In this document: in pieces, positions 1 to 8,316 of the stretch
Layout of the letters: every line of letters begins with the position of its first letter
Numbering within the stretch: the stretch's first letter is position 1
Virus record (IMG/VR): IMGVR_UViG_2718218139_000002
Direction: 5' to 3' (one strand)
Length of the DNA: 33,748 nt
From: a virus
Lineage: Duplodnaviria; Heunggongvirae; Uroviricota; Caudoviricetes
Position numbers and translations under genes: made by a program
The notes under the pieces: model-generated
What the model was told of the DNA's origin: nothing
Database searches by the model: none
The model's input: only the letters and a program-made list of their open reading frames with translations

Positions 1-177
1 ATGGAAAAAGATCTGAAAGCGTTGCGGGAATACCTGTTACTCTCCCCTGACTATCCTGAAGTTAACGATTCTCTGGCTAATTTCTCAACTGAAGACATGA
101 CCAACGAAGAGATAGCGGAACGTTTGGGAATTGCTCCAGATTGGATGGAAACCGTAGACCCCAGCAAACTTACCTGA
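1..177 (+). CDS. Small ORF at window edge (58 codons), unknown function; may be the 3' end of a longer upstream gene
   Basis: Open frame from position 1 to TGA at 175-177, followed directly by a GC-rich hairpin; no family recognised. Confidence 0.3.
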   Translation: MEKDLKALREYLLLSPDYPEVNDSLANFSTEDMTNEEIAERLGIAPDWMETVDPSKLT

Positions 178-178
178 T

Positions 179-212
179 GCAGAACGCGCCTTTGCTGGGC
201 GCGTTTCTTAGT
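179..212 (+). terminator. Candidate rho-independent terminator after the edge ORF
   Basis: Inverted repeat GAACGCGCC / GGCGCGTTTC around 183-208 followed by a T-rich stretch. Confidence 0.45.
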
Positions 213-262
213 CTTACATATGGCTGTTAATAGCTCAATACAGATGAGATTAGCCCTGCCAT

Positions 263-291
263 TTGACTATAAGTATCTTACACCGGATAAT
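263..291 (+). promoter_or_regulatory. Candidate sigma70 promoter for the two-gene operon
   Basis: TTGACT at 263-268, 17-bp spacer, GATAAT at 286-291, about 110 bp upstream of the first gene. Confidence 0.3.
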
Positions 292-402
292 TCGTGCGTA
301 AAAAGTGTTCAAACATATGATTCTTGATTTTGTTTGCCACCATAGTAAGCATTTTTATGTTGCATGTAGAGATGAGAAGGCAGGTATCACTTGATTGATA
401 TA

Positions 403-2868
403 ATGAAGGTTTGGCTTATTTCTCAAAAGTGGTTCTGGAAATTAAGAACAGATCTTGTGAGGGTTAGATTTATTTTAGAACGTGCGTCATACATACATCG
501 TACGTCTGTTTTTAAAGCTAAGTCTAACGCTCATGTTTTTATGTCTTTTGCGTTGGTAGGTTTAAAAAATTTGTTATGGGTCATATTAACGTTATTTGCA
601 CTGGGTTTTGTTGAAGATTATATTCGGAATAATACGATTTTGCTTCATCCTCTTAGCTATGATGAAAAAAAATTTAATATTGATCAACTTAGGTTGTACG
701 CACAGATACTTACCGCTATATTTTCAATATACTTTGCTACAATAGGTATCATTCTAAGTGCAGGATATACCAGACTTCGGCGAGATATTATACAAATGCT
801 TACTACCGAGCAGGTAGGTAATGTGTATTCGCGGACTTTAGTGCTTTCTGCGGTGTTTTGTCTTAGTGCAACTGCTCTCCACTTGTTCGGGGTTGAACCC
901 GGTCTTTTCGTTTATGCAATGGGAACATTGCTGACACTTGTTAGTTCCTTAGCTCTGTTCCCATTAGGTCAAAGATTATTCAATTTTTTTGACCTAAATC
1001 AGTTAGCCCGAAGTGAAATACTCCCACGAATTGCACGACACATCGAAGGTGCGTCTAATCCCAAGAATTCAGTATCTTTAGCTAATCATCACTCTAAAGC
1101 CGCACATTTGGCCTTTGAGCAGTTAAACTACATTGATGATCGCCTGATATGTGAAAAAGTAGGACTCGGAGATAATTTACCTGCTCTCAGTAATGTTTAT
1201 TCGGCATTACTTCTTCATTACCTTAATCAGAAACACAGAATTGATTATCAAAGTTACTGGTTCCCTAGACGAATAAAACATAAGCAATGGTTCTTAGCTG
1301 GCGACAGTGTAACATCCATTGCTTTAAAAACAAGGAGCCAATTAACGGTTGAAGAAGAACCAAATTATCTTTGGTTAGAGAATGAAATTATCAATAGGTT
1401 GGTAGGCCATATTGAACTTGCATTCAAAGCCGGTGATTTCAAGCTCGGGTTGGATCTCATCAGTCTATTCTCATCTCGTATATTAACTTATGCACAACAG
1501 TTTCAGTTCGATATTGGTATACGTGAACTTCGGAAAATGAAGACGATCATTGAAAAAGCCTTTACACCGTCTGATGTCGTTAATTATTTTGAGGAAAAGG
1601 TGATAAAAGTTGGAATTGCGGATGCATGGGCTGCATTAGGCAGCAATCTTTGCCTTGAAATGTTACGCCGCATGATTACTTTTGAGAAAGAATTGGAGCA
1701 GTTCTTTAAAGATGATATCTGGACAGAGACCTCTCTACACACTTTGCCTGCTTTTCTGCAGGTTGAGTTGGCCTTTATCGTAGAACGTATCGAATTCGAA
1801 AAAGAGATTGAAGGACAGAGATTATCCAAACCAAAGTACGTCCAGCAGTTGGCGGTTCAGAAGTTATTACAACAATATTCTAAAATTCTGCCAGAAGTAT
1901 GCGATTTTCACGTAAACATGGTTCCAGATTTCGTTAACTCACTGATAAACATGAAGATGCCGGAAGCCGCAACGCAAGTCGTTCTCGCTAGCCTACATAA
2001 TCATTTGAAGTTTCCCCATTGGTTTAATGAACTTTCTCTGCTCTTGGAGAGATACAGAAAGTACGAGCACTACTCTGAAAAGCTATACGCATTACCAGAA
2101 ATTAATATTGCTGAAATGCTCAAACAGTTTGTCGTTACACAGGATGAAGCTATAGCTATTCTTGGTAGGGAGGAAATTGTGGGACATATCATTGAACAAG
2201 AGCAAGATGATGAACTACCGGATCATTTGGGACAGATATATTTTGAGTTGGCTGAGGAATGTATACATGCGCTTGAACAGAATGATGAAAATAAACTGAG
2301 CAAGGTATTCCCTATGTTCATGGTTCTCTCATTGCTGGCATCAGATACTAAATTTGTAGATCCGAAACTCGATATAAACAACGAGTTTCGACTGCATCTC
2401 CTTTCATCCGCGATCAACGATCTGATGTCAGTTCTAGGTTTTGCTATCCTTTACAGTGCTTATTTCGATAATGCAAAACTATCTAAAACAGTACTTGATA
2501 GGTTTAAGTCTTGGCTCGAGTCTGTTCCCAACAAACAGCAGTATTTGAAGAGAATGATGATTCTTTCAAATCCGCGCAATTTCAGCTTGTGCGCATCACC
2601 GAGAGATATGATTCGTCTTAACTGGAAAATGGAATTTGAGCGCCGCGCAAGACATGATGGCTTTAGCGATCAAATGGGAATGAATCGAGGGAAATCTCAT
2701 ACGAACAAAGTTGTCAGAGAGTTCTTAAACTCCCATTCAGATGCATCGCATCTCTTTTGTGCTCTCGAAATTTTCCCGCAACTCGAGCAAATTGACTTCA
2801 AGATCGATTACCATGTTAGTGAGTTGGCTCGTCGTTTTGGCGTGGAATACGATAAGGATTTTGAATGA
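403..2868 (+). CDS. Large membrane protein, four predicted N-terminal TM helices plus a roughly 630-aa soluble domain; no recognisable family
   Basis: Long ORF 391-2868 (TTG at 391, first ATG at 403; start uncertain). Hydrophobic segments FMSFALVGLKNLLWVILTLFALGFV, LYAQILTAIFSIYFATIGIILSAGY, VLSAVFCLSATALHLFGV, LFVYAMGTLLTLVSSLALFPLG. AT-rich relative to phage genes. Stop overlaps the next start (ATGA). Confidence 0.6.
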   Translation: MKVWLISQKWFWKLRTDLVRVRFILERASYIHRTSVFKAKSNAHVFMSFALVGLKNLLWVILTLFALGFVEDYIRNNTILLHPLSYDEKKFNIDQLRLYAQILTAIFSIYFATIGIILSAGYTRLRRDIIQMLTTEQVGNVYSRTLVLSAVFCLSATALHLFGVEPGLFVYAMGTLLTLVSSLALFPLGQRLFNFFDLNQLARSEILPRIARHIEGASNPKNSVSLANHHSKAAHLAFEQLNYIDDRLICEKVGLGDNLPALSNVYSALLLHYLNQKHRIDYQSYWFPRRIKHKQWFLAGDSVTSIALKTRSQLTVEEEPNYLWLENEIINRLVGHIELAFKAGDFKLGLDLISLFSSRILTYAQQFQFDIGIRELRKMKTIIEKAFTPSDVVNYFEEKVIKVGIADAWAALGSNLCLEMLRRMITFEKELEQFFKDDIWTETSLHTLPAFLQVELAFIVERIEFEKEIEGQRLSKPKYVQQLAVQKLLQQYSKILPEVCDFHVNMVPDFVNSLINMKMPEAATQVVLASLHNHLKFPHWFNELSLLLERYRKYEHYSEKLYALPEINIAEMLKQFVVTQDEAIAILGREEIVGHIIEQEQDDELPDHLGQIYFELAEECIHALEQNDENKLSKVFPMFMVLSLLASDTKFVDPKLDINNEFRLHLLSSAINDLMSVLGFAILYSAYFDNAKLSKTVLDRFKSWLESVPNKQQYLKRMMILSNPRNFSLCASPRDMIRLNWKMEFERRARHDGFSDQMGMNRGKSHTNKVVREFLNSHSDASHLFCALEIFPQLEQIDFKIDYHVSELARRFGVEYDKDFE

Positions 2869-3857
2869 AAATTATCAAGAATATACCCCTTTACGGTTAT
2901 AGCGTCGATCCTGAGCAATTAAGTTTTGTTGATAGACTATTGACCAAGTCTAAGAATGAACGACCAGGTTTCTATCAAAGGATGTTTTATGAGGATTTTG
3001 CTAGAGTTTTTAATTTTGTAAATCACGGTGATACCAATTTGTTTCAAATCGAAACTAACGACGAAGAACTCATACGTAAAATGTTTGGAAATTTACAAGC
3101 TAGATATAGGAAATACTCGGTAGATGAAACAATACGTGAATTGGTGGAGGCAGTAGCGCAATCGTTGATTTGGCAAGGAACGGCATACTATTTTGTTCAA
3201 AACGTTTCTGAGCAAGAAAAAATACATATTACTCCTCTCGTTTCTGATAATATATTTTGTTTTTTTTCAGTGTATTTTCAGTATGTGCCGAAACGGTGTG
3301 AAAGATATTTAGAACGGGATCATGAGATGCTTCCAAGAGAATTAAGAATCTTGGATAAAAACAAACTAATGCGTTTCGAAATTCCTAGGTCCTTAAGGCA
3401 GATGTTGTCTGAACAAAATCGGACTTTAAAGATCATTGACAAGCATCAATTTGGTGTTACTAATTTTTATCCTCAAGCAACATACGAAAATCCTAACCCG
3501 AAAAGTCACTTTGATTTTAGCATTTGGAAAAATACGCAAGAGCAAGCATTATTCCGAGCTACGAGGAAAACCGGGTGGAATGGTAGAAATTATGATTCAT
3601 CAAAATGTTCTGATTTCTTCCATTACTATCGTCTTATTCGATTTAGACGGAATCAACTTATTTTACGTGATTATATATTGTTGCAATTAGGTAAAGAGCT
3701 CACAAGGGTAGGTCACCGATATAATGAGGACTTTAATGTTGTGATTTCACCAACAAGTGTTTTGCCTCAAATCGATAAACTAGATGAGATGGAATCATTA
3801 CTTTCTAGGGAGGAAATAGATTTTACTGAGGTGTCGGATTACTATTACGAACGTTGA
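2865..3857 (+). CDS. 330-aa soluble hypothetical protein, partner of the membrane protein
   Basis: ATG at 2865 overlaps the upstream TGA (2866-2868), indicating translational coupling; AT-rich; no motif recognised. Confidence 0.6.
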   Translation: MKIIKNIPLYGYSVDPEQLSFVDRLLTKSKNERPGFYQRMFYEDFARVFNFVNHGDTNLFQIETNDEELIRKMFGNLQARYRKYSVDETIRELVEAVAQSLIWQGTAYYFVQNVSEQEKIHITPLVSDNIFCFFSVYFQYVPKRCERYLERDHEMLPRELRILDKNKLMRFEIPRSLRQMLSEQNRTLKIIDKHQFGVTNFYPQATYENPNPKSHFDFSIWKNTQEQALFRATRKTGWNGRNYDSSKCSDFFHYYRLIRFRRNQLILRDYILLQLGKELTRVGHRYNEDFNVVISPTSVLPQIDKLDEMESLLSREEIDFTEVSDYYYER

Positions 3858-3980
3858 GCTTAGAAAAGTAACTATCGAACATTTAACACTATCATTTCGT
3901 TTCAATCTGGAGACTTATGGTGAACGTGCCCAAATTTCGCTCAGAGCAGACTGTCAGATTCAATCGTACCTTTTAAGTTG

Positions 3981-4011
3981 ATAACGCAATTTTGCGTTAT
4001 GCTTGTTTTTT
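3981..4011 (+). terminator. Candidate rho-independent terminator of the two-gene operon
   Basis: Palindrome ATAACGCAA..TTGCGTTAT (3981-4000) followed by GCTTGTTTTTT. Confidence 0.45.
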
Positions 4012-4648
4012 GGATGGGGATATATTTATCTCATTGATTTATATATAAATATAACGTTTATGTTGTTAGTCGTGCACGGTAAAGTTCTAGTATATGTCTC
4101 AGAATCTTCTTCAATACCTCAGGTATATTAAATGGTTAAAAGATAAAAAGCCTTTCAGAGTCGTGCTTACGCGCTCAAATTTCATGGTTGGGGATTTATA
4201 CGTGTATTCAACCCAAAAAGTGACTGAAAAAGTGCTTACAGAGTGACGTTACGTTGACGTTGTTTTCTGGTGATTTTTGCTCAGTAGTTGTTATTATATG
4301 TTTGATTATTATATATATTTTTAATATGTTGCTCACTTCAAACTCACGTCAACTCACTCTTATAGAGTGATTAATTTCTATAAGTACTTTATCTCAAAAT
4401 TTGATTTTTACGGATGGAAGCCCTTCAAAGAAACGTCATTTTTTTCTAAGACTTTGATCTTTCGTTAACGGTGTTAGTGGGGACTTCGGTCATCGAGTGC
4501 GATGCGCTCTTCTGACCGTTTCAATGGATAGGTTCGCCTTCTTGCGCCTCTCGCGGCGCTTGCCGCGCTCCGCGCTTTTGGCGATTGGGCAGGGATATTT
4601 CTCTTATATTGGTCGTTTTTTGCTCTGCCTTGTCACGATCTGTCACTA

Positions 4649-4900
4649 CTAGTAGTAATGGTCATAACCTCCGCTTTCTCTTCTGGCTCTGGATGCTCTC
4701 ACTCGTGCTTTTCTTAACATCCTTAACAGCGGGTGGGTTTGTACTTTGTTCGAGTTTATTGTCTGTGAGGATAGTAACTCCCTGCGCTCTGTCTCTGCCT
4801 CTTTGGTGACCGCTATCACTGATAAATCCCAATCGTGTTTGCTAATTAACGGTGCTTGGAACGGGGTGATTGGTGAGCGATTTATGTCTTGTCGTTTCAA
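4649..4900 (-). CDS. ORF occupying the N-gene position downstream of nutL; not recognisably an N antiterminator
   Basis: 83-codon ORF with TTG start lying 16 nt after a lambda-like AGGAGAATCCAG ribosome-binding stretch; arginine-rich segment RMLRKARVRASRARR is near the C-terminus rather than the N-terminus. Confidence 0.2.
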   Translation of the reverse strand: MKRQDINRSPITPFQAPLISKHDWDLSVIAVTKEAETERRELLSSQTINSNKVQTHPLLRMLRKARVRASRARRESGGYDHYY

Positions 4901-5020
4901 TGTACGCTGTCTGGATTCTCCTGTCAGTTAGCTTTGAGTAACGCGCCGTGATGCTTATCTCCACGGTTGCTGTCTTGCAGCTGCATTTCGCGCTACTCAA
5001 AGCCTTCTGCTTTGAATGCT

Positions 5021-7813: not shown

Positions 7814-8316
7814 TTGACTAAAATCGAAGTTACGAACAAGAAAGCGTCGAGCGGGCTTCAGTGTACACTGAGTGGATTCTATCTAGGCTTAGTGCATACA
7901 GAAGATTGCTGGTAAAGGACATGCCAGGCAAAACGATGAGGACTGATATTTATGAAAACATCTGATTTTTTACTGTTCTTGCATGCGGTACAGGAGGGGC
8001 TTTGACCGGGCATTTTATCGTGAATATTTTCACTTGGTATTTCTTTGGTTTTAGAGATTACTTCACTCGATGGGTTTTAAATAGTTTTCGTCGGTTTATC
8101 GGGTGCAAGCCTGATATGAGAATTTATAAAGATGAAAAGAATTGATTGTTAATGTGTTATGAGGTTTTTTGTTGTGAGTTTGTAATTTGCTTTTATAGAA
8201 ATACATTAAGTAAATATAATTAAATATTCAAATTGTATATGTATGCGACATGTTGGTGTTTGGTCGCATACACTGTTGAATATTTGGCTAATGTTATATC
8301 AATGTAGAGTTAAAGT

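Follow-up and report, generated by a model that had tools for sequence, protein, structure and literature searches.

What kind of system is encoded by two adjoining genes, assignable to no family, that stand beside the repressor gene of an Escherichia coli prophage? The question is raised by IMG/VR virus record IMGVR_UViG_2718218139_000002 (Caudoviricetes), a stretch of 33,748 nucleotides from strain CFSAN004176, hereafter the window. A first-pass annotation of the window had described a two-gene operon at its left end, here called genes A and B, as a candidate defence or exclusion module of the prophage. Both open reading frames (ORFs) that it had called, and the overlap that joins them, were confirmed:

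391-2868, plus strand: gene A, 825 amino acids (aa) from a TTG start
2865-2868, plus strand: start/stop overlap ATGA (TGA of A, ATG of B), read from the sequence and indicating translational coupling
2865-3857, plus strand: gene B, 330 aa

The reading that we favor, with a probability that we place somewhat short of even, is that A and B together make up a self-contained, horizontally mobile module that would act at the cytoplasmic membrane and is most likely directed against phages.

Homologues of the two proteins were collected by a word-indexed search, which gave 324 for A and 266 for B at 52-74% identity from Gamma-, Alpha-, Beta-, and Deltaproteobacteria. Their lengths were nearly constant, at ~829 aa for A and ~330 aa for B. 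The ratio of nonsynonymous to synonymous substitution rates (dN/dS), calculated for 12 gene pairs with 80-95% aa identity, was 0.11-0.30 for both genes. The hundreds of full-length homologues, their near-constant lengths, and the low dN/dS indicate that A and B are real genes and not chance ORFs. In all 27 of the 27 loci with sequence, B was located directly after A with tight spacing. No third conserved gene was found with the pair; the small upstream ORFs and the neighbors vary by locus, and a small serine recombinase (43% identity) was common only to the E. coli and Enterobacter loci. A pattern scan of 100,044 genomes, one per species, detected 22 A/B loci in a sporadic distribution, and this number is a lower bound because the scan requires two exact peptide motifs. 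These results indicate that A and B are a tightly coupled, co-inherited pair under purifying selection.

The family extends well beyond these close relatives. In a profile search with B, 616 cluster representatives were matched at E ≤ 1e-3 and 186 at E ≤ 1e-10. Most of the matched proteins were full-length (300-335 aa) with 20-30% identity, and had neither a Pfam nor a PADLOC match. Where the context was retrieved, the distant B-like gene was preceded by an A-like gene of 777-868 aa with four transmembrane (TM) helices; examples were found on Logan/ENA contigs, on two Paenibacillus plasmids, and on a conjugative plasmid of Burkholderia glumae. Furthermore, a natural fusion of the two proteins was identified in a metagenomic sequence of 1145 aa (P0361), whose residues 60-788 resemble A (26% identity, E 1e-35) and whose residues 856-1138 resemble B (26% identity, E 4e-17). 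As Rosetta-stone evidence, the fusion suggests that A and B act as one physical unit; it is a single sequence, for which a gene-calling or sequencing artefact is possible. Very probably, A and B form a genuine, co-functioning membrane complex. The copies of a Desulfobacterales metagenome-assembled genome (L008) and of Nitrosomonas aestuarii (L029) differ by a dS of only ~0.2-0.3, which points to a recent transfer between classes.

The surroundings of the pair in other bacteria were consistent with such mobility. In an enterobacterial prophage integrated at icd, the pair was located at the edge, beside the integrase. In Vibrio cholerae prophages, a variable slot lies between the integrase and the pair (L005 6727-9222 compared with L032 7660-9083), and it is occupied by Pycsar (PycTM and PycC) in one variant and by an RnlA-type RNase LS toxin with a 115-aa partner in the other; this slot between integrase and A/B is a swap-in defence hotspot. 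The pair of Pectobacterium was carried on a P4-like island together with AlpA, Phage_ASH, and AAA_25 domains and toxin-antitoxin modules, with DSR2 in one strain. In Enterobacter, serine recombinases bracket it, and a TIR protein and AbiC are its neighbors; AbiE and a Lit-type U49 peptidase adjoin the Vibrio fluvialis pair, and the Hyphococcus pair has a large serine recombinase and an HNH protein next to it. At other loci, type IIG or type I restriction-modification systems or the PADLOC candidates PDC-S05, PDC-M60A, and PDC-M68A adjoined the pair, and the distant pairs had Lamassu, QatABCD, an integrase, and ArdC as neighbors. On the conjugative plasmid of B. glumae (L127 3225-15167), the distant pair and VapBC are enclosed by two identical IS66 copies, an arrangement that looks like a composite transposon. 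Among the IMG/VR sequences, the pair was detected in only three predicted prophages, always at the edge of the contig.

Integrases or serine recombinases were adjacent to the pair in at least nine loci, and known defence systems were found within ~5-10 kb of it, an association that is qualitative. In approximately half of the chromosomal loci of the species scan, the surroundings consisted mainly of housekeeping genes, as expected if the pair is a small insertion. These results indicate that the pair is cargo of prophage ends, integrative islands, plasmid segments flanked by insertion sequences (IS), and defence islands. The location of homologous pairs directly beside defence and toxin-antitoxin systems and integrases makes defence or exclusion the leading hypothesis. 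The earlier proposal of a defence module was thus retained in this form, as a mobile and defence-adjacent pair for which we infer defence, and was given up where it made the pair a moron (an accessory gene insertion) of the prophage.

We next consider the two proteins. The A homologues share an N-terminal consensus, MIDxLKIW, that aligns with the TTG start of A, and an AGG lies 6 nt 5' of this codon. The NCBI annotation pipeline PGAP places the start at the ATG at 403 in the window strain and annotates the 825-aa form in strain TF5. By hydropathy, four N-terminal TM helices were found in A and none in B, as the first-pass annotation had reported. In 821-aa numbering and with Kyte-Doolittle windows, the four hydrophobic segments of A span residues ~43-71, 98-123, 141-165, and 166-189, and a basic amphipathic helix forms the N-terminus. 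Because the N-terminus and the TM2-TM3 loop are both basic, the positive-inside rule points to an N-in/C-in topology, and this predicted topology suggests that the large C-terminal domain of A, like B, is cytoplasmic. The AlphaFold2 (AF2) model of A was all-helical, with a predicted local distance difference test (pLDDT) score of 69 and a predicted TM-score (pTM) of 0.51. In this layout, the four TM helices are followed by a juxtamembrane region (~190-325) and a cytoplasmic alpha-solenoid (~325-815). Residues 197-321, directly after TM4, were poorly modelled yet were among the most conserved of the protein. The conserved motifs G189-x-R-x-F-x-x-F, H229, and S284-x-W-x-x-R-...-W296 were retained in the distant pairs and in the P0361 fusion. 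On this model, A is an inner-membrane anchor of four TM helices with a large, predicted helical-repeat domain that has no recognisable enzyme fold.

The model of B, which was built from a 30-sequence alignment, reached a pLDDT of 73 and a pTM of 0.73, with three of the five models in agreement. It was confident at residues 60-190 and 250-320, corresponding to parts of the wing, stem, and crown of a phage portal, and poor at 192-235. When B was compared with the BFVD structure library by Foldseek, all named matches in the top 50 were portals or portal-type COGs (COG4695, COG4383), with probabilities of 0.96-1.0, E-values of 7e-6 to 3e-3, and template modelling scores (TM-scores) of 0.3-0.43. 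The assignment was supported by two methods and two libraries, and places B in the structural superfamily of tailed-phage portals, which is defined by the wing-stem-clip-crown fold. From the N-terminus, the elements of B are helices, an eight-strand sheet (106-172), a long helix (175-196), a conserved stretch that was not modelled (197-221), a helix (222-236), a loop (237-244), a 39-residue helix (245-283), and C-terminal helices. This order matches what we take to be the portal topology, namely wing, stem, clip, stem, tunnel loop, long wing helix, and crown. D44, Q139, P174, G237-W238-x-x-R241, and R268 were near-invariant in 121 members of the family. The GWxxR signature sits between the two long helices, and the helix that follows it is Arg-rich in the core clade (R256, R259, R261, and R262). 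Judged from the order of elements, GWxxR would lie where portals carry their tunnel loop. B is accordingly predicted, on the basis of its model, to be a cytoplasmic protein with a tailed-phage portal fold that is encoded outside any virion gene set. Structure prediction thus agreed with the earlier description of a membrane protein and a cytoplasmic partner, and went beyond it in the predicted portal fold of B and in the predicted helical repeat of A, with no enzyme fold.

Whether B serves as an actual portal was examined from its gene context. Terminase, scaffold, and capsid genes were neighbors in none of ~35 A/B loci, and no homologue of A or B was found in 50,697 sequenced phage genomes by megablast and tblastn. 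We rejected the possibility that a cryptic element uses B as its genuine virion portal, in view of this gene context and of the fusion to a membrane protein. The closest proteins by fold (HK97-type) are portals, among them those of RcGTA (6TBA), 80alpha (8V8B), HFTV1 (8QQN), HK97 (8CEZ), and SPbeta (YonE, 9PHA). With its 330 aa, B is as long as the smallest portals, whose chains have 300-360 aa. It differs from them in having no sequence similarity and in being always coupled, and once fused, to a large membrane protein (825 aa in the window).

The first-pass annotation could assign neither protein to a family, and our sequence searches led to the same result in Pfam, NCBIfam, PHROGs, PADLOC-DB, and the PDB sequences. 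Against Pfam, NCBIfam, PHROGs, and PADLOC-DB, no meaningful match to A or B was obtained at E ≤ 1; the best PHROGs match (E 0.018) was to families of unknown function. The family profiles of A and B gave only chance matches to PDB sequences (E > 1), and no portal was among them. STAND, TIR, and RNase domains were absent from both proteins in Pfam, PADLOC, and NCBIfam. When 10 distant members including the fusion were searched with PADLOC, the sole match at E ≤ 0.1 was a weak one to JetA in P0274 (E 0.011, 12.9 bits). Two A homologues bear the UniRef name DUF2254 (PF10011), a label that was rejected as it was not reproduced by the Pfam scan: at E ≤ 1, DUF2254 was detected neither in the A protein of the window nor in the UniRef-named P0089 and P0090 nor in four distant A-like proteins. 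With respect to RexA, RexB, SieA, and SieB, which we assume to be contained in PHROGs, A and B had no significant PHROG match. Full-text searches of the literature for defence proteins resembling portals or sharing their fold, and for DUF2254 in a defence context, yielded no account of the A/B family.

Several known systems resemble the pair in architecture. RexAB of phage lambda consists of RexB, a membrane protein with four TM helices, and the cytoplasmic RexA, and it causes abortive infection by membrane depolarisation. Like RexAB, A/B is a gene pair borne by a mobile genetic element (MGE), with a four-TM protein and a cytoplasmic partner, and in the window it is adjacent to a repressor gene; this is an analogy of the "works like" kind. 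In contrast to RexAB, A has 825 aa with a predicted helical repeat, B has a predicted portal fold, neither has a PHROG or PADLOC match, and the pair is convergent with cI and not co-transcribed with it, the adjacency to cI being secondary. Kiwa is a membrane-embedded defence complex of KwaA, with four TM helices, and KwaB, a cytoplasmic protein of ~300 aa (DUF4868). It too comprises two genes for a four-TM protein and a cytoplasmic partner of ~300 aa; A/B differs in that it matches neither the PADLOC Kiwa models nor DUF4868, that A is four times the size of KwaA, and that B is predicted to be portal-like. Phage T4 builds its portal, gp20, at the inner membrane together with a membrane chaperone, gp40, and the portal nucleates the head at this site. 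To our knowledge, gp20/gp40 is the only well-known case of a portal ring physically tied to a protein of the cytoplasmic membrane. Set beside A/B by description, it offers a precedent for a membrane-tethered portal mimic, with the difference that gp20 and gp40 are virion-assembly genes in a structural module, whereas A/B is stand-alone MGE cargo.

Known anti-phage systems sense the portal or the terminase, and we know of none that encodes a portal-fold protein. According to two reports, Avs4, SpbK (with YonE), and RAZR sense phage portals, and bacterial immunity has repeatedly converged on the portal and the packaging machinery (PMC12847820, PMC13017515). The portal that triggers these systems is encoded by the phage; in A/B, a protein with a predicted portal fold is encoded by the module itself. 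Another two-gene system, San Juan (sjdA/sjdB), was obtained in metagenomic selections; domains could be recognised in neither of its two proteins, one of which has four putative TM helices, its activity against T4 and T7 resembles abortive infection, and the libraries had average inserts of ~2 kb (PMC12366544). It shares with A/B the two genes and the four TM helices of one product, a likeness by description only that we treat as an unverified lead. The TM protein of San Juan is the product of the second-named gene, whereas in A/B the TM gene comes first, and identity of the two is unlikely because inserts of ~2 kb on average compare with a 3.5-kb operon. We therefore rate A/B as lying outside every known kind of system, with a function that we infer.

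How such a pair might work can be sketched as follows. B would form a portal-like ring, which the solenoid of A would keep at the cytoplasmic side of the inner membrane. The ring could serve as a decoy of the procapsid portal vertex, as its likeness to a membrane-tethered portal suggests, or as a sensor of DNA ends or a DNA channel. It would engage a conserved late phage component through the invariant GWxxR loop and the basic helix behind it; this component may be the packaging complex of terminase and DNA, scaffold or capsid proteins, or the DNA of the phage. The signal would then pass to A, whose bundle of four TM helices would perturb the membrane and abort the infection; alternatively, A may sequester the captured phage machinery at the membrane and so interfere with assembly or packaging. 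The lack of an enzymatic domain in either protein points to membrane perturbation by the TM bundle of A or to stoichiometric interference. Within this sketch, the parts differ in standing. That the module acts against phages is a function we consider reasonably probable, on balance. The specific route from a portal decoy to a membrane effector is doubtful. It is likewise unlikely that A/B is the first cellular, non-virion family of the portal fold, exapted as a membrane-tethered decoy that captures the packaging motor or a DNA end, with the outcome that packaging is aborted or that the membrane domain of A opens and the infected cell dies; the spread of the pair from Proteobacteria to Firmicutes by horizontal transfer is put forward as part of that joint reading and shares its low probability.

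A number of observations weigh against this picture. A single AF2 monomer model of moderate confidence underlies the assignment of B as portal-like, two of the five models having failed, and the most conserved stretch of B (192-235), presumably the clip, is missing from it. The Foldseek TM-scores of 0.3-0.43 are low. In an hhalign comparison of the B family with an HK97-portal alignment, the probability was 1.6%, the template being shallow (sequences 85-98% identical), and neither B nor 10 distant relatives matched a portal family of Pfam, NCBIfam, or PHROGs. Contacts between portal and terminase are usually phage-specific, an odd fit with one conserved decoy across several host classes. On the side of function, a known pore or effector motif is absent from A, the argW island that carries the pair in E. 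coli (described below) contains no other recognised defence gene, and PADLOC-DB v2.0.0, including its PDC candidate families derived from defence islands, gave no match to A or B. This release includes Kiwa and Zorya, and presumably also the PD-T4/T7/lambda, Rst, and PDC sets. The window copy itself may be under relaxed constraint on its truncated island. Compared with the near-identical E. coli alleles L043 and L044, it shows 3-4 nonsynonymous to 1-2 synonymous differences in A and 3-6 to 0 in B; compared with TF5, the ratios are 4 to 2 in A and 6 to 0 in B. These numbers are small. In addition, the A protein of the window has L at position 613 (825-aa numbering), where F is nearly invariant.

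If portal-vertex mimicry were true, it would represent a new principle of immunity, and possibly one of broad range, as all tailed phages use a portal to package their DNA. The portal fold would, moreover, have its first clear exaptation outside virions and gene transfer agents, which is relevant to the ways in which structural proteins of viruses are recruited by hosts. At 3.5 kb, the family is compact; it occurs in clinical lineages of E. coli and in Vibrio cholerae, Yersinia, Enterobacter, Pectobacterium, and Burkholderia. Since it is invisible to current defence annotation tools, it may explain cases of unexplained phage resistance. Even if the function is not defence, a conserved complex of a membrane protein and a predicted portal-like ring would be new cell biology.

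Four other explanations were weighed against the favored one. A membrane-anchored portal-like ring might block entering linear phage DNA or the ejectosome channel, so that superinfection is excluded with no cell death. The inner-membrane site with a cytoplasmic partner that is predicted to be ring-like would suit such a block, the basic GWxxR loop and the Arg-rich helix could grip DNA, and the prophage copies stand beside the integrase or attachment site, a classic place of exclusion genes. The block would be workable in diderms and Gram-positives alike, because only a cytoplasmic membrane is needed. However, A and B resemble none of the known exclusion proteins, such as SieA, SieB, and Imm (no PHROG match), and many copies lie outside prophages; exclusion proteins are usually small and of narrow host range, whereas A/B is large and conserved across classes. 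We consider this explanation rather improbable. About the same small chance is given to a membrane module with no connection to phages, which might be, for example, a toxin-like or addiction cassette, an envelope stress system, or a transport scaffold; it would hitch-hike on mobile elements, and its portal match would be convergence or artefact. The moderate confidence of the B model and its lack of a sequence link to portals are in keeping with this, as are the mainly housekeeping surroundings of about half the chromosomal loci in the species scan and the E. coli island with its single candidate. What argues against a hitch-hiker is that the pair adjoins at least 10 different known defence or toxin-antitoxin systems at independent loci, and that its sporadic, transfer-driven distribution is typical of defence cargo.

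A function in the selfish interest of the element, either as a piracy portal of a satellite or island or as a conduit for DNA export or uptake with a rolling-circle Rep, appears less probable again, and we give it a slim chance. The E. coli island of ~11 kb is satellite-like in its P4-type integrase, small regulators, and G2P-like Rep; the Pectobacterium pair shares a P4-like island with AlpA, Phage_ASH, and AAA_25 domains; and satellites that form capsids are known to encode their own portals. By contrast, most A/B loci have no linked Rep, primase, capsid, or terminase gene and are ordinary prophages, plasmids, or bare chromosomal sites. A virion portal needs no membrane partner of 825 aa, still less a fusion to one, and homologues were lacking in sequenced phages, with just the three IMG/VR contigs carrying the pair at an edge. 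The last alternative is that of the first-pass annotation, a defence or exclusion moron owned by the prophage and placed in its early-left arm. Its basis is that, in the window, the operon lies immediately to the left of a cI-like repressor gene and convergent with it, and that the early-left genes are missing there. As described next, the locus of the pair in other E. coli genomes makes this alternative very improbable.

The left 4.5 kb of the window was at least 99% identical in 148 of 5,426 complete E. coli genomes and was always chromosomal. In ~147 other complete genomes, the island was present with no prophage of this kind beside it. In AR_0372 and TF5, the left end of the window corresponds to the distal part of an island of ~11 kb at the tRNA-Arg gene argW. 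The island begins with a P4-type tyrosine integrase, small helix-turn-helix or DNA-binding proteins, and a G2P-like rolling-circle Rep, and continues with B, A, a 58-aa ORF, and a 208-aa serine recombinase, beyond which csc or dsdC is located. The window is divided accordingly:

1-4910, no strand assigned: right-hand remnant of the argW island, 99.65% identical to AR_0372 (L043 22515-17599) by blastn
4649-4909, minus strand: C-terminal fragment of the rolling-circle Rep, annotated as "replication protein, missing N-terminus", ending at the junction
4911-32664: degenerate P22-like prophage with IS600 in the lysis region, a capsid gene split by IS3, and its own IntS beside argW

Homology of the window to the island stops inside the Rep gene, which is intact in AR_0372 and TF5 (285-350 aa, Pfam REP_ORF2-G2P). 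The junction at 4910 that cuts this gene was present in 1 of the 5,426 genomes, namely the window's own strain CFSAN004176. The prophage also has truncated portal and Rz genes and no terminase, and its early-left arm is missing because it was fused to the argW island at 4910. The early-left position of the operon is thus correct as a description of the window and secondary in origin, the result of a deletion or fusion between prophage and island and not the native home of the operon. A membership of the pair in the pL operon as a moron was rejected for the same reasons, and with it the claim that the module belongs to the prophage.

The gene set of the AR_0372 island (L043 13458-17860), with a P4-type integrase, a filamentous-phage-type Rep (G2P-like), and a serine recombinase, is unusual and satellite-like and was matched to no described type of element.

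The remaining signals around the operon were read as follows:

1-177, plus strand: 58-aa island ORF, 5' of the operon, followed by a hairpin at 182-206
263-291, plus strand: candidate sigma-70 promoter TTGACT-17-GATAAT, matching the consensus at 10 of 12 positions
334-361, plus strand: second promoter-like match TTGCCA-16-TATGTT from the consensus scan
2854-2858, plus strand: Shine-Dalgarno sequence AAGGA, six bases 5' of the ATG of B
3981-4010, plus strand: terminator-like hairpin ATAACGCAATTTTGCGTTAT followed by a T-run, 124 nt past the stop codon of B, a consensus match only

By tblastn, no homologue of the 58-aa ORF was detected outside the E. coli loci, and the ORF is not considered part of the system because it is not conserved with the pair there. 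The first-pass annotation had credited the operon with its own promoter and terminator. Consensus matches for both do exist, but 13 promoter-like hexamer sites were found compared with 14.5 expected in shuffled sequence, so that the candidate promoter is weak evidence, and the hairpin comes from a consensus scan. The statement that the operon is richer in AT than the phage genes was borne out: the GC content is 0.387 in A and 0.348 in B, compared with 0.461 in the prophage part and 0.48-0.53 in most phage genes. The data support a foreign composition of A and B and a self-contained, two-gene operon.

The serine recombinase of the island is accompanied by a repeated sequence. Three copies of GTCTCAATAGGGTTGT in mixed orientation lie at L001 11701-11833, ~170-300 bp to the left of window position 1 and directly 5' of the recombinase gene; they are possibly an operator or a res-like site of the recombinase. 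A promoter inverted under control of the recombinase was rejected, as the inverted repeats are 54-99 nt apart and do not flank the promoter of A. In Enterobacter hormaechei (L036), a recombinase of 43% identity is likewise placed with respect to the pair.

A second low-GC insertion was observed in the nin region of the prophage, where an AT-rich patch (8001-11000) with a GC content of 0.30-0.39 contains one large ORF:

8317-10089, minus strand: 590-aa ORF, WP_000612803, annotated as "hypothetical"

The product of this ORF had no Pfam or PADLOC match. WP_000612803 is a further unassigned moron and a candidate defence or exclusion gene.

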